64,000 bases of DNA from positions 8,424 to 72,423 of the forward strand of contig CANSAJ010000003.1 in NCBI GenBank assembly GCA_947644695.1, given 5' to 3'. The stretch comes from an uncultured Bacillota bacterium (GTDB lineage: Bacteria > Bacillota_I > Bacilli_A > RF39 > UBA660). Positions 3,990-45,781 of the stretch are shown in pieces. The notes below the pieces were generated by a model that did no database searches, was not told the origin of the DNA, and worked only from the letters and a program-made list of their open reading frames with translations. The translations under genes and the position numbers were made by a program. Positions within the stretch are counted from its first letter, which is position 1. Every line of letters starts with the position of its first letter.

Positions 3990-5874
3990 TCTAACTTTAA
4001 GAGCTTCTACAATTTATAATAATCGAGTAGAGAAAACTTTTCATTTAAAGTATAATGAATACTTTTCCCCCTCACACCACCAAGCATATCGTTCGGTACT
4101 TGGCGGTTTAATTTGTAATAATATGTACTTTTAAATAGTGGTCTAGTAAATTTACTAGACCTCTTTTATTTAATCTTTCTTTAGATATTGCTTCTTTTAG
4201 TACCCATGTATTTCCAATAAAATATAAACCTCTTCTACAATTTGCTGTCATAAAAGCATTGTAATGGTCTATTCCTAGTTTTCTTAAAGATGTATATCTT
4301 TTCTTGATTTTCTTCCATTGTTTCCATATGACTACTCGTATCTTTCTTCTAATTCTTGCATCTAATTTATCAAGAAGTACTTTCATATCTGCAATTCTAA
4401 AATAGTTAACCCATCCATATATTAAATATTTTAATTCTTCTAATCTTTGGTTTAATGATATTCCTCTTTTCCTAAGAAGAATTTGATTTAATTTATAGAT
4501 TAATTTCTTTACTGATTTAATATGTGGCTTAGGTCTCCATATATTTTGATTAATCTTTTTGTAAAATCCAAAGCCTAAATATTTAATATCTTTTGGTCTT
4601 GCCACTTTACTCTTTTCTACATTTATTCTTAGTCCTAATTTCTTAGTTATAAATGTACTTACACTTTCCATCACTCTATTCGCTGCTTTCTCACTTTTTA
4701 CCATGATTAAACAATCATCTGCATACCTTACAAAATTTAAACCTCTTGCTTCCAATTCTTTATCTAATTCATTTAACATAATATTAGATAACAATGGACT
4801 TAAGTTTCCTCCTTGTGGTGTTCCTTTATGTGTTTTCTGTACAACTCCATCTTCCATTACTCCACTTTGCAAAAACTTTCTTATTAATGATATTACATCA
4901 TTATCTTTGATTGTTCTATGTATAATTGCCATTAATTTATCTTGGTTTACCTCATCAAAGAAAGATTGCAAATCTATGTCTACTATCCAGTCGTACCCAT
5001 CGTTAAAACATTCAAGCGCTTTTATAACTGCCTGTTCACAACTTCTTCCTAGTCTAAATCCATAAGAATTATTTGAAAATTGTTCCTCATAAATAGGTGT
5101 TAATACTTCTACTATTGCTTGTTGTATTACTCTATCTATTACACATGGTATTCCTAGTTTTCTCATTTTTCCATCTTCTTTTGGTATATAGACTCTTCTT
5201 ACAGGAAGTGGCTTATATTTTCTATTTCTTATTAATGTAAATATTTCTTCTTTATGTTCTTTGATATATGAAAATATTTCTTCAGTAGTTACTCCATCTA
5301 TACCACTTGCTCCTTTATTTTTGTAAACTTGCTTATATGCTTTGTTTAAATTATCTTTGGAAAGTATTTTCTCTAAAAGTTCCATATCTGTTCCTCTCTT
5401 TCTATTATCGTACATAGATTAACGTCTTTTATAGGATTTATTCTGACTTTTAATCTATTCCAGTATTAGTAATTAGAACTACAAATTATTCAGTCCTTCC
5501 TAATTTCTTAGTACTACGACCTCTGCTGACTTCTCATAGTTAACCTTTTTCGAACACAGATTTTCTCGTACTCCTCGTCGTTTCCCTTTCTATGTCTATG
5601 AGACCTCCCGCGGTAAGACATATATCTTTCCTCAATTAGCCACTTATTTTACTGCATAAAGTTACGAGTATCTATTTGGACTTTAGTTTGTATTGCAACC
5701 TTATCCGTTTACACAGCCTTATAATAAGTTTCTGTTCGTTAGCCCTCGATTTTGTTTCGCACTTCCTTTAGCCCCAAGCCTCACGACTGATGCTTTGCGT
5801 TTCCCTAACACTTCGCTGATACCTACGCGTGTAGTGGACTTTCACCACCTAGATATATGCCATGCACGGCACAC
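3990..5874 (-). mobile_element. Group II intron (3' boundary approximate)
   Basis: Minus-strand sense begins GTGTGCCGTGCATGG... at 5874 (GUGYG 5' consensus), followed by domain-I-like sequence (GTGCGAAACAAAATCGAGGGCTAACGAACAG). RT/maturase ORF lies in domain IV. Directly after the ORF stop there is a domain-V-like hairpin CCGCCAAGTACCGAACGATATGCTTGGTGG (about 4075-4107) and a G-rich domain-VI-like tail. Confidence 0.85.
4108..5415 (-). CDS. Group II intron reverse transcriptase/maturase (intron-encoded protein)
   Basis: 435 aa; RT domains 0-7 including a YADD active-site motif (RYADDCLIM), a maturase X domain and a C-terminal basic region; N-terminus LLEKILSKDNLNKAYKQVYKNKGASGIDGVT is typical of LtrA-like IEPs. 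Confidence 0.95.
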   Translation of the reverse strand: MYDNRKRGTDMELLEKILSKDNLNKAYKQVYKNKGASGIDGVTTEEIFSYIKEHKEEIFTLIRNRKYKPLPVRRVYIPKEDGKMRKLGIPCVIDRVIQQAIVEVLTPIYEEQFSNNSYGFRLGRSCEQAVIKALECFNDGYDWIVDIDLQSFFDEVNQDKLMAIIHRTIKDNDVISLIRKFLQSGVMEDGVVQKTHKGTPQGGNLSPLLSNIMLNELDKELEARGLNFVRYADDCLIMVKSEKAANRVMESVSTFITKKLGLRINVEKSKVARPKDIKYLGFGFYKKINQNIWRPKPHIKSVKKLIYKLNQILLRKRGISLNQRLEELKYLIYGWVNYFRIADMKVLLDKLDARIRRKIRVVIWKQWKKIKKRYTSLRKLGIDHYNAFMTANCRRGLYFIGNTWVLKEAISKERLNKRGLVNLLDHYLKVHIITN

Positions 5875-5969: not shown

Positions 5970-5992
5970 TTTGTTAGCAACGTGTTAGCAAC
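5970..5992. repeat. Putative attL core (23-bp direct repeat copy 1)
   Basis: Identical to 45759-45781; contains the internal duplication GTTAGCAAC x2. Confidence 0.55.
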
Positions 5993-7301: not shown

Positions 7302-8012
7302 TTATATTTTTTTAATTTGACCAATAGATACCCAACCTCTAGGTTTAGTATCTTTTATTTCTCTACCATTTAAAGGTTCATTACTTAAATGGTATGCTCT
7401 AGGACTATCTGTTTGAATTTTAGTTATATATTTAATGTTACTTGAATCATTGATATCACCATTATAATATGCAGTTCTAGAACCACCTCCAAAAGAATCA
7501 GCTGTTGCATAACCTGTCAAAACTAATACTTTATCGCCTACTTTATAAGTATCATCTGTTTTTGGCTGTTCTTCATTTTTTTCCTCATAAATTGGTTTAG
7601 TCAAATATTCTGTTGGATCTATTCTATCGTTATCTCTATATACTTCAAAATGTAAGTGTCTTCCATTTACTGATCCACTCTCTCCTATTACAGCTAGGAT
7701 TGTATTTTCATCTACTTCTTGTCCTACATTTACTTTGATTGTTCCCTTTCTTAAATGTGCATATCTACTTTTCATTCCGTTTGGATGCTCTATAAGCACA
7801 TAGTTTCCCCAACTTTTATCAGCTAGTGGTAAGGTCCCTAATCCATCTTTTATATCTATTACTTTTCCTTTACAATTAGCATAGATGTTATTCTGTACTT
7901 CATCTACTCTCCAACCTAAATCCACTCCATTGTGTCCCTTATATCCTTGCCATCCACAAGTTATTCTATTTTCACTATCGTTTATTACTCTACTCATCTT
8001 TCTTTTCCTCAC
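7302..8012 (-). CDS. Endolysin: M23 (LytM) peptidase domain + C-terminal SH3b-like cell-wall binding domain
   Basis: HNGVDL ... GNYVLIEHPNGMKSRYAHL ... GRHLHFEV are the M23 zinc-binding motifs; C-terminal YKVGDKVLVL... is SH3-like; adjacent to the holin. Confidence 0.8.
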   Translation of the reverse strand: MRKRKMSRVINDSENRITCGWQGYKGHNGVDLGWRVDEVQNNIYANCKGKVIDIKDGLGTLPLADKSWGNYVLIEHPNGMKSRYAHLRKGTIKVNVGQEVDENTILAVIGESGSVNGRHLHFEVYRDNDRIDPTEYLTKPIYEEKNEEQPKTDDTYKVGDKVLVLTGYATADSFGGGSRTAYYNGDINDSSNIKYITKIQTDSPRAYHLSNEPLNGREIKDTKPRGWVSIGQIKKI

Positions 8013-8175
8013 TTTCTTTTTTAGTAAAATAAAAAGTTAATATCATTGTAATCAACGGTATTAACTCGTTAGCACTTATTTTATTTTGGAAGAAACCTAT
8101 TATTAAAGCTACTACCATTAAAATTGTTATAATTGATTTTAAATCTATCAATTTAGCAAATCTGTTTTTTATCAT
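7990..8175 (-). CDS. Holin (61 aa, two TM segments, charged C-terminus)
   Basis: Small size, two hydrophobic helices, KKESEEKKDE tail; overlaps the endolysin start. Confidence 0.6.
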   Translation of the reverse strand: MIKNRFAKLIDLKSIITILMVVALIIGFFQNKISANELIPLITMILTFYFTKKESEEKKDE

Positions 8176-8507
8176 AATTTTCCTTCTTTCTTTAATTTTT
8201 CAACCTTATGATCGATATAAGAATTACCACCTAATTCATGATATCTCCTGTTTGTTTCGTAAAATCTTTCTTCTTCTACTTCATCTATAACATTGTTTTG
8301 TTCAACATCACTTAAAAATCTTACTAAAAAGTTCTTGTCAGATGTCAATTCCAAGTCGTTTATTCTCTCTTTTAGTGGCTCAATTTCATCTTTTAAAGCA
8401 TGCTTAAGCCACCTTTTAATTCGTATACATAAGTACTCTATTGAACCAATTAAAGCCACTAAAAAAGCAAGTATACCTGCTACTTGTGTAATTGTCATTT
8501 TTTCCAT
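8172..8507 (-). CDS. Lysis-cassette-associated membrane protein (N-terminal TM + coiled coil)
   Basis: 111 aa; N-terminal TM QVAGILAFLVALIGSIEYL; translationally coupled to the holin. Confidence 0.35.
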   Translation of the reverse strand: MEKMTITQVAGILAFLVALIGSIEYLCIRIKRWLKHALKDEIEPLKERINDLELTSDKNFLVRFLSDVEQNNVIDEVEEERFYETNRRYHELGGNSYIDHKVEKLKKEGKL

Positions 8508-8517
8508 TTTTACCTCC

Positions 8518-8958
8518 TTAAATTTTATATCCTATTACAGCATAAATATATAAATCTTTCGTTGTGTCTATTGTCGGTTTAGTTTCATGAGTATAATAAA
8601 AATATCGCAATGATCTTGCAAATGTCATTTTATTTCCTGAAAATTTATACCATAAAGAAAAAATTCCCATAGCATTATTTTGGTCATGCCAAACACGAAA
8701 AATAGGGTGTTCCCCTGTTCCAATATAATTCACATAAAAAGTATTCGTTGTAATCATATCTGATTTCCCAGAAATAACATCAATTCTTTTATAATTACTT
8801 ATACTATCAGATAATGTGATACTCACATTAGTTCCACTGGAATTTTCATATAGAATTATTCCTCCTAAAGAATTTTTTAAAATCATATCATTATGTATTA
8901 TTACATTACTATCTAAATATTTATTATTTATTCCATCATTTCCGTAAATATTTGTCAT
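8518..8958 (-). CDS. Phage tail-fibre-associated hypothetical protein
   Basis: 146 aa, lies between the tail fibre genes and the lysis cassette. Confidence 0.35.
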   Translation of the reverse strand: MTNIYGNDGINNKYLDSNVIIHNDMILKNSLGGIILYENSSGTNVSITLSDSISNYKRIDVISGKSDMITTNTFYVNYIGTGEHPIFRVWHDQNNAMGIFSLWYKFSGNKMTFARSLRYFYYTHETKPTIDTTKDLYIYAVIGYKI

Positions 8959-8974
8959 AATTTTAAATTATTAT

Positions 8975-9394
8975 TTAAGCTATTCGTACATACCTATATG
9001 CTGTGATATATGGCTGTAAATTATTGTGAGATTTATCAGTAACAACTCCATTACCTCTGCTATTTTCATAATTTGCCCATCCATTTAATGGTCCTGACCA
9101 ATTAGTATTACCATAACCATTAGTTCTATTTGCCCTCACCGTTATTGATCCTGGTAATTCTTCAGTTATTAATTTATGAGTTTTCTCTCCTCCAGTCTTT
9201 TTAACTAAATTAAATTCTGTTTGGGATGCATCTACTCCCACTATTACTCTACCTACACCATATTCTTCCCATGTTCCACCATAAATTTCACTCGGATTAA
9301 TTTGTACAGCACTTTCCAATATATAACCCACATGAAATGAAGGTCTAGGATAGTATTTTACTCCTTTTGAGTCTATCAAATAACCTTCATTCAT
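8975..9394 (-). CDS. Phage tail/baseplate accessory protein (hypothetical)
   Basis: Best start is ATG 9392-9394, preceded by AAGGTG SD; the ORF track's GTG at 9403 is a less likely start; Gly/Asn/Trp-rich. Confidence 0.4.
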   Translation of the reverse strand: MNEGYLIDSKGVKYYPRPSFHVGYILESAVQINPSEIYGGTWEEYGVGRVIVGVDASQTEFNLVKKTGGEKTHKLITEELPGSITVRANRTNGYGNTNWSGPLNGWANYENSRGNGVVTDKSHNNLQPYITAYRYVRIA

Positions 9395-9458
9395 AAATTT
9401 CACCTTCTTGGAGATAACACTTAAATAATAAGCTTACCTCCTTTCGACATAAAGTACC

Positions 9459-9510
9459 TTTGTTTGTTTGTTTGTTTGTTTGTTTGTTTGTTTGTTTGTT
9501 TGTTTGTTTG
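9459..9510. repeat. Perfect tetranucleotide repeat (TTTG)13 (minus sense (CAAA)13)
   Basis: 13 uninterrupted TTTG units counted directly, 52 nt, intergenic between the tail-fibre gene stop (9579) and the next tail gene start (9394). Confidence 0.95.
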
Positions 9511-9514
9511 TAAC

Positions 9515-9542
9515 ATTATATCAAATATAGGTACTCCGTCAA
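9515..9542 (-). promoter_or_regulatory. Near-consensus sigma-A promoter (TTGACG-16nt-TGATATAAT) firing into the (CAAA)13 repeat
   Basis: Minus sense TTGACGgagtacctatatttgaTATAAT, with the -10 at 9515-9520 and the -35 at 9537-9542; extended -10 TG present. Confidence 0.5.
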
Positions 9543-9578
9543 TATTATTATTATTATTTTTCATTTTTGATTCCTCCA

Positions 9579-11018
9579 CTAAATAGTTTTTATTTTTTTG
9601 AATGCTAAAAACTCATTTGCATCTTTATCATAAACTGGAGTATGGTGCTGAAAATGCTCTTCTCCCCAGTCATGATTTGGTATACCAGTTGTTACTGTTT
9701 GTTCTTTCGTATCTTCCGATAATTTATCTATTACTGATAATTTAAATCTATAATTTTTTTTATAATTATACAATTCTCCACAATCAATTGTAGTTTCTAC
9801 TATATTATTTTCATTAAAGGTTGGTGTGATATTTCCACCTAATACCCATTCGCTATTGTAAACATCCTCTTTATAAAACCATTTTGCATTTAATACATTT
9901 GATATATTACCAAACGATTGATTAAAAAACTTACCAAAATAAGTAAGTTTTACATTTGAACTAGTTTGCGAAACTCTATATGCATTTAAATTTATTTGTG
10001 GATCAAAATATTCTATTAAATTACCTGTTGTGCTGATTATATTAGTATTAGTAAATCCTCTACTGTTAGTAACTGTGATTGTTACACTTTTTGACTGTGT
10101 ATTAAATATTATTGGGTTATTCCCTACAAACGATATACCATTAATAACTCTAGATGTTATTGTACTATGATCTTCACTTGTTGATGATGAAGTTAACGTT
10201 AATGTAGCTTGTATATTGCTATACCCTTTAATAACTTTATTTTCTGATCCTGTTAATGAAACTGTTGTTATGTTAATATCTTTTAAAGTTCCGCTTATCG
10301 AAGGCTTACATCTACTCTCTAAACAATTTGCTGTAAATACTCCTGTTTTAGTTCCAATTAAACTAGTTCCACTATACGTTTTTAAAGTAAATGTTCCTGT
10401 TTTATATTTTCCAGTAAATTCATTATAAAATGCACTTGGTAATGTAAATAAAATATTAGAATTGTTAAACTTATATTCTGTGGTCTGAAGTGTTCCATTA
10501 GAATTTATATATTTATCAATACTACCAAACGTCACTTTTAACGAATGCTTAAAACTACTAGATGCTGGATTTAATGAAATATTGTAGCTATCTTCAATAT
10601 AACCACTCAGGTTTGGACAAGTAGTTGCTCTTGGAATAGTTGATAGTGCCATACTACTTGATATATGACAATCACCAGGTGTGTAATAATTACCTGTAAT
10701 TTCTGTAAAATCACAATTTAATTCTACAGTTTTTCTACCATCAGCATTATGATATACTTCTTTTCTCCCACTAGCCCAAAGATTTTCACCAGTGCTCATT
10801 GCACCTCTCAATTGTTCTGTATCATATACAGTTTCTCCATTTATTTTTGCCACTAATCTAGACATATAATCATCAAAATACCAGTTTTGAGTAACTTCCA
10901 TTTTGATTACCCAATCAACATAAGTTCTATTTGTAGTTATATAGTCGCTTGGTACATATTCAGTTGCTTCAAATATCAAGTAATGATGCCCTTTTGCACA
11001 TAATTGTCTTAATTTCAT
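9579..11018 (-). CDS. Phage tail fibre / receptor-binding protein
   Basis: 479 aa, Ser/Thr/Asn-rich beta-type composition; last large gene of the tail module. Confidence 0.55.
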   Translation of the reverse strand: MKLRQLCAKGHHYLIFEATEYVPSDYITTNRTYVDWVIKMEVTQNWYFDDYMSRLVAKINGETVYDTEQLRGAMSTGENLWASGRKEVYHNADGRKTVELNCDFTEITGNYYTPGDCHISSSMALSTIPRATTCPNLSGYIEDSYNISLNPASSSFKHSLKVTFGSIDKYINSNGTLQTTEYKFNNSNILFTLPSAFYNEFTGKYKTGTFTLKTYSGTSLIGTKTGVFTANCLESRCKPSISGTLKDINITTVSLTGSENKVIKGYSNIQATLTLTSSSTSEDHSTITSRVINGISFVGNNPIIFNTQSKSVTITVTNSRGFTNTNIISTTGNLIEYFDPQINLNAYRVSQTSSNVKLTYFGKFFNQSFGNISNVLNAKWFYKEDVYNSEWVLGGNITPTFNENNIVETTIDCGELYNYKKNYRFKLSVIDKLSEDTKEQTVTTGIPNHDWGEEHFQHHTPVYDKDANEFLAFKKIKTI

Positions 11019-25972: not shown

Positions 25973-26046
25973 TGGTTACGGGTGAAAGATTTGAACTTTC
26001 ATTAATTGCTGCTGAGACAATTGTGTTTCAATTACACTAACCCGTG
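25973..26046 (-). tRNA. tRNA-like gene (74 nt incl. CCA), anticodon loop CUCAGCA giving anticodon CAG; non-canonical
   Basis: Minus sense CACGGGT-TA-GTGT-AATTGAA-ACAC-A-ATTGT-CTCAGCA-GCAAT-TAAT-GAAAG-TTCAAAT-CTTTC-ACCCGTA-A-CCA. Conserved U8, A14, A21, U33 and a TTCAAAT T-loop are all present. There is a C1.A72 mismatch, a pyrimidine at position 37, and a class-I (short variable arm) structure despite a Leu-type anticodon. Confidence 0.5.
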
Positions 26047-42122: not shown

Positions 42123-42236
42123 AAACTCAATCTGCTTGAGTAATTAAAGTATAGCATATCAAAAAATACCTGTCAACAAGAAAACTCAATTATTTTGAAT
42201 TTTCTTGTTGAACTTTTGTTTACGACCTGTTATAAT
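42123..42236. promoter_or_regulatory. Lysogeny switch region: operator palindromes + PRM-like promoter
   Basis: Palindrome ACTCAAtctgcTTGAGT (42124-42140). A 12-bp inverted repeat TCAACAAGAAAA ... TTTTCTTGTTGA (42173-42211) overlaps the -35 TTGAAC (42208-42213), which is spaced 17 nt from TATAAT (42231-42236). Half-site ACTCAA recurs. Confidence 0.55.
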
Positions 42237-42260
42237 GTACACAAAGAAAGGGGTGAACTA

Positions 42261-42662
42261 ATGAAAACATCAAATACTTCCCAAAGACTGAAAGAAATTA
42301 TGAACATAAAAGGTTTAAAACAAATTGATATTTTAAATAAAATTGAACCAATTTGTAAAAAGTATGAAGTAAAAATGGGAAGTAATGATTTGAGTCAATA
42401 TGTAACTGGAAAAGTGGAACCTTCTCAAAAAAAATTGAGTGTTCTTGCTGAAGCCTTAGAAACTAATGAAGTATGGCTTATGGGTTATGATGTTACAATG
42501 GAACCAAATCTCAGCGAAAATAAAGAAAATACATTTGACGAATTAGAATTGTTATTTAATAAAGCAAAACCACACTTATCAGAAGATGACAAAGAGACAA
42601 TGAAGTTTCTAATGCAAAAGACTATTAATAATTACGAAAAGAGTAAAAATCAGGATAAATAA
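42261..42662 (+). CDS. cI-like XRE-family repressor (ImmR-type)
   Basis: Start taken at ATG 42261 (SD AAAGGGGTGA), not the track's 42195, which overlaps the promoter; HTH QRLKEIMNIKGLKQIDILNK; C-terminal dimerisation region. Confidence 0.7.
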   Translation: MKTSNTSQRLKEIMNIKGLKQIDILNKIEPICKKYEVKMGSNDLSQYVTGKVEPSQKKLSVLAEALETNEVWLMGYDVTMEPNLSENKENTFDELELLFNKAKPHLSEDDKETMKFLMQKTINNYEKSKNQDK

Positions 42663-42753
42663 TAATTGAAATTTTAAGTAAAGGAGTATAAAGTACTTTC
42701 ATTCGGGTATTGACTTTAATACATTTATATTATAGAATGTATATGTATTGAGC

Positions 42754-42778
42754 TTCGGTATCCCGTGTGGACCGAAGA
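42754..42778 (+). terminator. Rho-independent terminator after the repressor gene; left arm of the Abi-flanking inverted repeat
   Basis: CTTCGGTatcccgtgtggACCGAAG followed by ACTTTTTATATT. Confidence 0.55.
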
Positions 42779-42789
42779 CTTTTTATATT

Positions 42790-43749
42790 ATGAAAGATTT
42801 TAAAACAATAGATAATCAAATTGAACTTTTAAAAAATAGAGGATTAACTTTTAAAGATGAAGAAAAATCAAAAGATATTCTTATTAAAAATAATTATTAT
42901 AACATTATAAATGGGTACAAAGAACCATTTATAACCGATGGAACTAAGGATAATTTTATAACTAATACAACTTTTGAAGAAATATATGCACTATATATTT
43001 TTGATAAAAGAATAAAGGATGTTTTCTTAGAATATATTTTAAAAATTGAAAATAATTTAAGATCATTAATTGCTTACTATTTTTCTATGTTTCATGGTAA
43101 TGATAATTATTTAAAATTAGATAACTTTGATAATTTGGATAATATTTCAAATACACTTACAGAAACTAAAAGTAAAAAAATAAAATCAATTCAAGAATTA
43201 ATAGGAACTATACATAAAGAAATAGCTAAAACTATGACTTCTAAAGACTATATAAAACATTATATAATTGATTATGGTTTTGTACCACCATGGGTTTTAG
43301 TTAATATTCTTACATTTGGACAGTTAAGCAAATTTTTAGAATCAATGAAACAAAATGAAAGAATAAAAGTATCACAACACTTTAATATACTAGAAAATGA
43401 ATTAGTTCAATATACTAAATTACTGTCATATTTTAGAAACTTGTGTGCTCACGATGATAGAATTTTTAATGTCAAATTACCAAAATACTTATATATTCCT
43501 GATAATGAATTGCATATTCAATTAAATATTTCTAAAAAACAAGATATGTATTCTTCTGGTAAAAATGATTTATTTGCTTTGTTAATTACTTTAAAAATCA
43601 TGCTAAGTGAAGATGAATTTAATACTTTATATAACAAAATTTATGGAAGAATAAAAAGTTTAGAGCATAATTTATCTAGTATAAATATTAATAAAATACT
43701 AGAAAGAATGAATTTTCCTAGTAATTGGAGAGATATAAAAAAGTTCTAG
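42790..43749 (+). CDS. Abi_2 family (AbiD/AbiF-like) abortive-infection protein
   Basis: Start at M15 of the track ORF; the N-terminus MKDFKTIDNQIELLKNRGLTFKDEEKSKDILIKNNYYNIINGYKEPF matches the Abi_2 signature (...QIELLK.RGL.I.DE......L....YY.L.GY); about 320 aa as expected. Confidence 0.65.
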   Translation: MKDFKTIDNQIELLKNRGLTFKDEEKSKDILIKNNYYNIINGYKEPFITDGTKDNFITNTTFEEIYALYIFDKRIKDVFLEYILKIENNLRSLIAYYFSMFHGNDNYLKLDNFDNLDNISNTLTETKSKKIKSIQELIGTIHKEIAKTMTSKDYIKHYIIDYGFVPPWVLVNILTFGQLSKFLESMKQNERIKVSQHFNILENELVQYTKLLSYFRNLCAHDDRIFNVKLPKYLYIPDNELHIQLNISKKQDMYSSGKNDLFALLITLKIMLSEDEFNTLYNKIYGRIKSLEHNLSSININKILERMNFPSNWRDIKKF

Positions 43750-44750: not shown

Positions 44751-45758
44751 ATGAAACGAGCAAATGGTATGGGCAGTGTATATAAACTTTCAGGAAAAAG
44801 AAGAAAACCCTACGCTGCCTCAGTTACAATAAATGGAAAGAGAGTTGTACTAGCTACCTTTCCAAAACCTAAACTAGCAATTGAATATTTAAGTAATTAC
44901 ATATGTAATCCATACGATATAGATTATTCAAAATATACAACACTTCAATTATTTGAAGAATGGTTTCCAACTTATAATAAATCCGATAGTTCAAAGAATA
45001 ATTATAAAAATGCTTTCTATCAACATTCTAAACCAGTACATAATAAAGCATTTATTGAATTGAGAAAAAAAGATATACAATATTTAGTTGATAATAGCAA
45101 TCTCAAATACACCGGAAGATCATACATAAAAATAGTCTTTTCAGCACTTTTTGAATACGCAAAGGAAAAAGAATTAGGAGTCAAAGAAAATTACGCTAGA
45201 GGCGTCAAATTAGGCGATAAGAACATATCTGTTATGCACAAATCTCTTACAGACAAAGATTTTGAAACTGTTTGTAATAATTCCGACAAAGAATTTGTTG
45301 ACATAATTATGGTTTACTTATATACCGGAGCACGGCCAAGTGAACTTTTAAAAATTACTAAAAAAAATGTTTTTTTAGAAGAAGATTATATGGTTGGCGG
45401 AATTAAAACAAAAGCAAGTAAAGACAGAATAATGCCTATTCATCCAAAAATTAAGAAAATAATTGAAAAACATTATCATAAAAATTCAATATACCTTTTT
45501 GAAAATATAAAAGGAGAACAAATAACATATAAAACTTTTGTTAAGAAATTTAAAGAAGCATTAAATACTTTAAATTTAGAAGAAGAATATAAACCACATG
45601 ATACAAGACATACATTCTCTACTAGAGCAAAATTATCTGGAATGGATGATTTATGTAGAAAATTAATTATGGGGCACGCTATTAATGATTTAACCGACAA
45701 TATTTATACTCATATACCTAAAGAAAAATTAATTGAGGAGGTGAAAAAATTAAAGTAA
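44751..45758 (+). CDS. int: Tyrosine site-specific recombinase (phage integrase)
   Basis: 335 aa; C-terminal catalytic region HDTRHTFSTRAKLSG ... LIMGHAINDLTDNIYTHIP (R, H-x-x-R, Y); the stop abuts the 23-bp att repeat. Confidence 0.85.
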   Translation: MKRANGMGSVYKLSGKRRKPYAASVTINGKRVVLATFPKPKLAIEYLSNYICNPYDIDYSKYTTLQLFEEWFPTYNKSDSSKNNYKNAFYQHSKPVHNKAFIELRKKDIQYLVDNSNLKYTGRSYIKIVFSALFEYAKEKELGVKENYARGVKLGDKNISVMHKSLTDKDFETVCNNSDKEFVDIIMVYLYTGARPSELLKITKKNVFLEEDYMVGGIKTKASKDRIMPIHPKIKKIIEKHYHKNSIYLFENIKGEQITYKTFVKKFKEALNTLNLEEEYKPHDTRHTFSTRAKLSGMDDLCRKLIMGHAINDLTDNIYTHIPKEKLIEEVKKLK

Positions 45759-45781
45759 TTTGTTAGCAACGTGTTAGCAAC
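45759..45781. repeat. Putative attR core (23-bp direct repeat copy 2)
   Basis: Identical to 5970-5992. Confidence 0.55.

Follow-up and report, generated by a model that had tools for sequence, protein, structure and literature searches.

Recombination, diversity-generating retroelements and invertible segments are the usual explanations for host range in gut phages. In trp-type attenuators and at overlapping ATGA junctions, typically, downstream expression is decided by the position of the ribosome on a leader open reading frame (ORF) relative to a terminator hairpin and the next start codon. Variation through simple repeats is already known in phages as well, from the poly-G tracts of Campylobacter phages and the homopolymers of coliphages. 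We present here the analysis of a stretch of 64,000 nucleotides (nt) from an uncultured Bacillota bacterium (contig CANSAJ010000003.1 of assembly GCA_947644695.1, positions 8,424 to 72,423, forward strand; hereafter the window), in which a perfect (CAAA)13 tetranucleotide repeat lies in a short leader ORF between two tail genes of a prophage. In known attenuators the position of the ribosome is set by physiology (charged tRNA, antibiotics), whereas at this locus it is proposed to be set genetically and heritably, by repeat number.

In Campylobacter Fletchervirus phages, hypermutable poly-G tracts occur in the genes of receptor-binding proteins (Sorensen et al. 2021, Cell Rep 35:109214; cited in PMC12823448 and bioRxiv 10.1101/2025.10.21.683753). 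To the extent that this system is related in the citing works, it shares with the present locus a phage-encoded simple repeat in a host-recognition module and mixed progeny arising by slippage, and the poly-G tracts of some relatives described below (loci L005, L007, L048 and L118, and the L013-type phages) closely resemble it. Within the same accounts, the Fletchervirus tracts are homopolymers inside the receptor-binding-protein ORF, carried by lytic phages of a Gram-negative host, whereas here a tetranucleotide stands in a separate leader ORF between the halves of a split tail protein, is accompanied by a ladder of three stops, conserved hairpins and an embedded promoter, and belongs to temperate phages in gut metagenome contigs of low guanine-cytosine (GC) content. 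Contingency loci have likewise been described in T2, T4 and other coliphages, where slippage-prone phage repeats similarly serve as bet-hedging; those loci are short homopolymers (at least 6 nt), mostly within ORFs and under-represented in tail-fibre genes, and neither tetranucleotide repeats nor a leader-ORF design is described in that work (Gomez, Barrick and Waters, bioRxiv 10.1101/2025.10.21.683753).

Among bacterial systems, the uspA2 gene of Moraxella catarrhalis carries an (AGAT)n tract of about 12-19 units upstream of its ORF and is expressed in a graded manner according to unit number (PMC7302503 and its reference 21). The likeness lies in a tetranucleotide repeat placed upstream of a putatively regulated ORF; uspA2 differs in being a bacterial surface-protein gene whose repeat acts at the mRNA level, and the portions of PMC7302503 drawn on here mention no translated leader ORF. 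The tetranucleotide contingency loci of Haemophilus influenzae include CAAA repeats in or upstream of YadA-domain genes (PMC2651432), and are thus alike in both repeat class and unit, with ON/OFF switching that depends on the frame and proceeds in 4-nt steps. There the repeat is found either upstream of the regulated gene or within its own 5' coding region, whereas here a separate short ORF carries the repeat and the position of its stop is the presumed output (PMC2651432). A literature search returned no description of a leader ORF that precedes tail-tip genes and contains a tetranucleotide repeat, of a three-stop ladder, or of such a cassette in temperate gut phages.

Drawing on comparison of sequences among related phages, we lean, with modest confidence, towards reading the arrangement as a slippage-driven, frame-based switch or tuner, in which repeat number would set where the leader ORF stops relative to the hairpins and to the start of the tip gene, and hence the amount of tip protein.

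The repeat, the leader ORF and the frame ladder

The elements of the locus, listed in minus-strand order, are as follows, SD denoting a Shine-Dalgarno sequence, aa amino acids and bp base pairs.

9579..11018, minus strand: tail protein gene, 479 aa, DUF859 (Pfam PF05895, E 1.6e-24; PHROG 372 'tail protein', E 4.9e-48)
9421..9564, minus strand: leader ORF, 47 aa at 13 units, MKNNNNNIDGVPIFDIML(QTNK)4QRYFMSKGGKLII followed by the stop
9515..9542, minus strand: sigma-A-type promoter-like site, TTGACG 9542-9537, 16 nt, TG-n-TATAAT 9520-9515
9459-9510, minus strand: (CAAA)13 repeat, giving (QTNK)n in the frame of the leader ORF
9446..9458, minus strand: stem P0 (GGTACTTTATGTC), directly 3' of the repeat, from the RNAalifold consensus
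9410..9441, minus strand: hairpin P1 (GGAGGTAAGCTTA / TAAGTGTTATCTCC), 12 bp, from folding and covariation
9387..9406, minus strand: tip-gene start region, SD AAGGTGA 9406-9400, ATG 9394, overlapping leader stop TGA 9389-9387
8975..9394, minus strand: tail-tip gene, 139 aa (Pfam PF21939, E 1.2e-21; PDB 2fkk, gp10, E 2.7e-15)

A first-pass annotation made from the letters of the window had placed a perfect (CAAA)13 repeat in the tail region of the prophage. The tract was confirmed by direct reading, and Tandem Repeats Finder returns it on the plus strand as TTTG x13.2 with 100% matches (9459-9511). It is the sole simple repeat of at least 16 nt across the window, whose GC content is 26%, and it can be presumed that 13 perfect tetranucleotide units in such DNA lie far beyond chance. 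Being long, perfect and built of a unit that is not a multiple of 3, the tract has the make-up of a contingency locus.

The leader ORF has the layout that had been described for it, with an SD (GGAGGA, 9577-9572), a 7-nt spacer, an ATG at 9564 and passage through the repeat to a TAA at 9423-9421; the leader frame opens with a GTG that shares nucleotides with the stop of the upstream DUF859 gene (TAG, 9581-9579). Unit numbers from 0 to 30 were simulated, and the outcomes foreseen for 12, 13 and 14 units were reproduced. Where n = 0 mod 3 (e.g. 12), the leader ends at TGA 9389-9387 and overlaps the ATG of the tip gene at 9394 (ATGAATGA, 9394-9387), which is the only class in which stop and start overlap. 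Where n = 1 mod 3, the state of the window with its 13 units, the TAA at 9423-9421 lies in the loop of P1, 26 nt from the tip-gene ATG, and where n = 2 mod 3 (e.g. 14) the leader stops at TAA 9436-9434, inside GGAGGTAA. That element, read earlier as the SD region of the downstream gene, forms the 5' arm of the hairpin at 9441-9410, and the SD of the tip gene is the AAGGTGA at 9406-9400.

The tail gene, the leader and the tip gene occupy three different frames. A change in repeat number that would fuse the leader ORF or the tail gene to the tip gene was rejected, as at any n of 0-30 a stop ends each frame ahead of the tip gene or shortly after its start. Programmed frameshifting and long-range bypass were weighed by reasoning alone, with nothing in their support.

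A leader at the junction of a split tail protein

The gene downstream of the leader, regarded at first pass as tail-fibre-associated, does encode a tail-tip domain. Its 139-aa product consists entirely of a T4 gp10 C-terminal-type domain (profile positions 6-139 of 139 of PF21939), and the complete protein also matches residues 486-618, the C-terminal 133 aa, of a 618-aa protein of the Streptococcus prophage Javan244 (BLASTP E 4e-24). The AlphaFold model of the tip protein is of low confidence (predicted local distance difference test score 63.5) and adds nothing to this identity. The DUF859 protein in turn aligns by BLASTP with residues 40-172 of the Javan244 protein (E 5e-9). Since Streptococcus prophages such as Javan244 hold the DUF859 part and the tip part in one 618-aa protein, the window carries a split version of it (479 + 139 = 618 aa), and the repeat-bearing leader is placed exactly at the junction of shaft and tip, where the streptococcal gene is fused. 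That the 139-aa gene is a truncated pseudogene was rejected in view of more than 300 stand-alone homologues of 130-160 aa.

Unit number and frame state among relatives

Lineages B-E were found via the tip protein, by exact-protein and homologue look-ups; their tip proteins are 50-77% identical to that of the window and the cassette is kept. A scan of IMG/VR for (CAAA) tracts of at least 7 units gave 115 loci, 17 of which, falling into groups X, Y and Z, share the same architecture. The (CAAA)n cassette is thereby found in about eight related gut-phage lineages, with the following unit numbers.

Lineage A, the window: n = 13
Lineage B, L029: n = 14
Lineage C, L031: n at least 22, the contig beginning within the tract
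Lineage D, L036: n = 4
Lineage E, L043-45: n = 6, the same in three samples
Group X, 11 loci: n = 7, 7, 7, 9, 10 (six loci) and 14
Group Y, 3 loci: n = 7, 13 and 14
Group Z, 3 loci: n = 8, 12 and 14

Related phages therefore carry the leader with different unit numbers, in keeping with the slippage-type variation that had been suggested for the repeat. The differences extend to close relatives: L187 and L228, with 400-nt flanks 100% and 93.7% identical, have n = 7 versus 10, and L146 and L152, with flanks 92% identical, have n = 10 versus 14. The other contigs of the window's own lineage end in the repeat. Most short-read contigs break inside the tract; these breaks were considered as a sign of heterogeneity and rejected, the k-mer length accounting for them. 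Within group X, the change from n = 7 to 10 amounts to exactly 3 units and keeps the frame.

A strong SD stands ahead of the leader ORF in nearly all lineages, at or overlapping the stop of the upstream tail gene, and the three-stop ladder, in the three frames that follow the repeat, recurs in every lineage examined. Its early stop lies at P1, the middle one 13-51 nt before the tip gene and the last 4-8 nt inside it. The overlap with the start takes the form ATGnnTRA or ATGnTAA in L029, L031, L036, L040, L050, L152, L196 and L199, and measures 8 nt in the L013-type phages, L043 and L079.

With regard to the state that was assembled, roughly 20 (CAAA)n loci are resolved; the stop falls in the P1 loop in two of them (the window and L180), at the middle position in about 11 and at the overlapping position in six. 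The first-pass annotation had read 13 units as uncoupled and 12 as ON. As the commonest assembled state in relatives is a stop 13-37 nt ahead of the gene and not an overlap with it, ON and OFF are not assignable to frames; what stands of that interpretation is a slippage-prone tract in a translated leader whose stop is chosen by unit number.

Among individual relatives, a second short repeat, (GAAA)2-3, abuts (CAAA)n in L180 and L227 of group Z, and a deletion removes most of the leader in L199. One relative contig adjoins spore-coat genes and another comes from a mouse gut metagenome.

Other simple repeats at the equivalent site

Other simple repeats are found with more distant gp10-C-type genes, some at the 5' end of the gene and others in a short ORF equivalent to the leader. 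Poly-G leaders of L013 and L015-L018 show G8, G9 and G10 among contigs with 99-100% identical flanks, these counts being of a kind that is error-prone in assemblies. G9 is found in the leaders of L040-42, (TA)15 in that of L050, and (TCAA)13 together with (CA)8 in L079 and L081; the three-stop ladder is present in all of these leaders also. At the start of the gene itself, G8 or G9 occurs in L005, L007 and L048, and in L118 an in-frame G8 lies just ahead of the tip domain of a long fibre gene. Simple repeats were counted in 80 IMG/VR loci, and their density between -250 and +60 nt of the gp10-C-type domain match is about 8 times that elsewhere (7 in 24.8 kb versus 8 in 241 kb). The nucleotide profile of the leader matches the (CAAA)n lineages A-E only, and the poly-G and (TA)n leaders are linked to them by layout and short motifs alone.

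In L079 and L081, (TCAA)13 (254-305) and (CA)8-9 (472-489) share one 105-aa leader ORF. Next come four small tail-tip genes, paralogues of one another, whose products all begin with M(K/Q)IN.DL; this arrangement would suggest exchangeable tips under one switch. An unrelated but recurrent use of (CAAA)n was seen in L205, L168 and about 30 others among L128-L242, on IMG/VR contigs of 40-50% GC, where the tract (n = 8-20) comes directly after the ATG and sets the frame of a DPPY-motif DNA methyltransferase-like ORF (MFKQAPLPFVGQKR...). These loci look like phase-variable phage methyltransferases.

Structure of the leader RNA

Between the repeat and the tip gene, the leader is 79-98% identical in nucleotides between lineages, as against 60-79% for the flanking genes. 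Eleven leaders were folded with RNAalifold, and pairs were counted against 500 shuffles and against slid controls. The pairing of P0 and P1 holds in 98.3% of cells versus 90.6% in the shuffles (0/500 reach it), and the slid controls pair in just 33-53%. Changes on both sides were found in five pairs, four of them in P1, and some of the compensatory changes in P1 alter the leader peptide, which points to a constraint on structure. The 4-bp stem P0 has a closing pair of GC, CG, UG or AU across the 11 leaders and is weak in the window itself. Thermodynamic z scores in the relatives range from -2.1 to -4.6.

A run of T5-7 comes after P1 in lineages B-E, and group X has a second hairpin, P2, and then T5; with their T run, P1 and P2 of the relatives look like terminators. 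Neither P2 nor a T run is present in the window, and its P1-loop stop therefore lies as close as 26 nt to the ATG of the tip gene. Searches of Rfam with the leaders of the window, L029 and L043 gave no match at gathering or relaxed thresholds, and a known RNA family for the leader was rejected on that ground.

The embedded promoter

The promoter-like site noted at first pass, TTGACG-16-TATAAT, is present as described, and 11/12 hexamer matches plus TG are found in the window, L029 and L133. Transcription would be predicted to start at about 9508, in the first CAAA units. The three loci share a pattern that abuts the repeat, TATTGAC[AG], 16-17 nt, TG-n-(T/G)ATAAT and nTTA, and TATTGAC[AG] stands 32-33 nt ahead of the repeat in lineages A, B and D and in groups X, Y and Z alike. 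The distance from the -35 element to the repeat is 32 nt in A and B and 33 nt in X, Y and Z, and the ORF reads ATT GAC in the one case and TTG ACA in the other; this reading of the same sequence in different frames indicates a constraint on DNA rather than on the peptide. In the AT-rich window, 11/12 matches number 8 against 7.5 expected, and those with TG 2 against 0.38 expected; what speaks for the promoter is that relatives conserve it. Its hexamers at a spacing of 16-18 nt, conserved in this way, fit a predicted sigma-70/sigma-A promoter; the site is missing from lineage E.

The spacer of the promoter forms an inverted repeat in group X (GCATTC-GTAA-GAATGC; L133 4437-4453) and likewise in group Z (GAACTTT-TTGG-AAAGTTC; in L180, between TTGACA and the repeat). 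Within the leader ORF such a repeat might serve as an operator or form an RNA stem.

Proposed mechanism and alternative explanations

In the frame-based switch that we favour, (CAAA)n would be a slipped-strand hypermutable tract in a short, efficiently translated leader ORF that bridges a split tail protein, with the DUF859 shaft gene upstream and the gp10-C-type tip gene downstream. Gain or loss of one unit (4 nt) would shift ribosomes to another frame, and the three frames would bring them to the three conserved stops, at P1, tens of nt before the tip gene, or 4-8 nt inside it. How far the ribosomes travel could decide both whether the leader hairpin or hairpins fold and whether ribosomes are delivered to the start of the tip gene. 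Repeat number would in this manner set the expression of the tip domain, and possibly that of the next gene, among up to three states, the outcome being mixed phage progeny with different tail tips. We infer that slippage would occur in the host at a useful rate, that the frame would affect expression and that adsorption or host range would change with it.

In favour of the switch we count the recurrence of the leader with differing unit numbers, the ladder shared across repeat types, the non-random frame states, the conservation of the leader, the covariation of P1, the strong SD ahead of the leader ORF, the enrichment of repeats near tip genes and the placement at the junction of shaft and tip. 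Several observations weigh against it, the error-prone poly-G counts among them. The skew of frame states that is counted in its favour has a binomial p of about 0.005-0.02 if equal frames and independent loci are assumed, but as the loci are phylogenetically related such statistics overstate their independence. The fold of the window leader is not significant on its own (z = -1.4); P1 is present there with neither P2 nor a T run, so that the window does not hold the intrinsic terminator of an attenuator, and the leader hairpins were not flagged in a simple terminator scan. The tip gene has a reasonable SD of its own, and coupling is perhaps dispensable. Lastly, the embedded promoter would yield transcripts without the leader-ORF start, which a frame-based switch does not explain.

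That promoter is the starting point of a different account, which we regard as unlikely and which can coexist with the switch. The transcript would start with (CAAA)n and continue into P0 and P1 (with P2 and a U run in relatives), and the length of the tract, as part of a 5' untranslated region, would tune the amount or stability of the mRNA or the translation of the tip gene; alternatively, the product would be a small RNA. The near-consensus extended -10 promoter abutting the repeat in the window, L029 and L133 speaks for such an account, as does the retention of TATTGAC[AG] in six lineages and groups despite their differing ORF frames, the hexamers remaining constant while the spacer between them varies; the hairpin and T run of the relatives would end such a transcript, and the uspA2 (AGAT)n tract, as far as PMC7302503 is drawn on here, offers a precedent. 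It sits poorly with lineage E, which has no promoter and whose leader ORF starts ATGTTA right ahead of the repeat, and with every leader of poly-G, (TA)n or (TCAA)n type, where the promoter is absent and the ORF ladder retained. Groups Y and Z moreover have a poor -10 element and lineage D has lost part of it, AT-rich DNA such as this readily yields 11/12 matches by chance, and the frame-preserving 3-unit differences, together with one depleted frame state, point to translation.

It is improbable, in our estimation, that the leader ORF is itself the phase-variable gene, its product being a small protein such as an assembly factor, about 50-110 aa long in relatives, in which (QTNK)n would form a variable linker. 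Its strong SD would suit this, as would the ORFs that are open to the tip start (74 aa in L029, 59 aa in L036, 49 aa in L043 and 79 aa in L196), the similarity of the N-terminal part within each of groups X, Y and Z and the annotation of the leader ORF by gene callers. That N-terminal part is nonetheless lineage-specific, from 0 to more than 20 residues long, with only 'ML' before the repeat in lineage E; the compensatory changes that keep P1 alter encoded residues; and the leaders with other repeats encode unrelated peptides yet keep the stop ladder. Exact look-up of the 47-aa product of the window gave no match, no Pfam or PHROG family was found for the leader ORF, and a search of 5.8 billion proteins, swamped by low-complexity candidates, gave one homologue. 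We think it just as improbable that the tract has no function and perpetuates itself by slippage where an intergenic or leader region tolerates it, with the stops reflecting AT-rich sequence. Stops are frequent at 26% GC, so that two closed frames are expected, and short alleles (n = 4 and 6, the latter in three samples) exist and seem stable. Against this stand long perfect tracts kept at the same site although the neighbouring proteins are 50-77% identical, the rise of at least four other repeat types at the equivalent site, the roughly 8-fold enrichment of repeats just upstream of tip genes, the presence in every lineage of one frame that reaches the gene start uninterrupted over about 25-40 codons, and the non-uniform frame states.

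A wider proposal that builds on the frame-based switch is put forward tentatively, as possible though short of probable. It would comprise a portable, repeat-programmed leader cassette placed before exchangeable tip genes of gut phages, whose hypermutable tract ((CAAA)n, (TCAA)n, (CA)n, (TA)n or poly-G), stop ladder and covarying terminator-like hairpins would yield three heritable expression states of host-recognition proteins, with a (CAAA)n-led small RNA, made from the embedded promoter acting constitutively, in lysogens of the (CAAA)n branch in addition. Such a genetically set attenuator would be one not described for phages or bacteria.

Implications

If the frame-based switch is true, a widespread slippage switch before tail-tip genes could give temperate phages a further route to bet-hedging over receptors, one that is systematically broken by short-read assemblies and overlooked by gene callers. 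It would be a rare case of a simple repeat acting through the stop position of a leader ORF and not through the frame of the regulated gene or the spacing of a promoter. The signature is searchable, namely a short ORF that holds a simple repeat, follows a strong SD and ends in a stop overlapping the start of the next gene; it could help to find variable host-recognition genes. Heterogeneous phage preparations are predicted, which would be relevant to phage therapy and to virome-host linking.

Neighbouring genes and prophage setting

Directly after the tip gene lies a gene that could share its regulation.

8518..8958, minus strand: gene of unknown family, 146 aa

No Pfam or PHROG match was found for its product, and no homologue in a word-indexed search. 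By BLASTP, residues 1-64 are 38-40% identical to ORFs of L013-L018 and L075, and the matched 150-aa ORF in the poly-G lineage likewise sits after the tip gene. The 146-aa product is a probable second distal-tail component, possibly co-regulated with the tip gene.

No DNA-level relative was found in the phage GenBank collection, exact flank searches of IMG/VR and JGI metagenomes gave no match, and the GTDB representative genomes held distant relatives only (at most 38% identical). A 23-bp direct repeat, TTTGTTAGCAACGTGTTAGCAAC, at 5970-5992 and 45759-45781 brackets the 39.8-kb prophage, which is apparently complete, and the two copies are probably its attL and attR cores. The integrase gene lies inside, next to the right-hand copy.

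44751-45758: integrase gene, inside the prophage

Besides the integrase, the gene content includes a repressor, helicase, terminase, portal, major head protein, tape-measure protein, tail proteins, holin-like genes and an M23 peptidase. At the lysogeny end, an abortive-infection-type moron gene (PHROG 2158, 42748-43749) adjoins the repressor-like gene (42195-42662). Between the terminase region and the early genes there is a tRNA-Leu(CAG) gene (25973-26046), unusual for a genome of 26% GC, which may be a codon-usage helper of the phage. A group II intron (4108-5790) abuts the left prophage end, with a reverse transcriptase/maturase ORF at 4108-5415 and matches to Rfam domains D1-D4 at 5493-5790. 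Two small membrane-protein-like genes of 111 aa and 61 aa (7990-8507; PHROGs 13632 and 13256, function unknown) sit between the tail-tip genes and the M23 peptidase gene and are probably a holin pair; a terminator-like hairpin (8481-8466) lies inside the first of the two.

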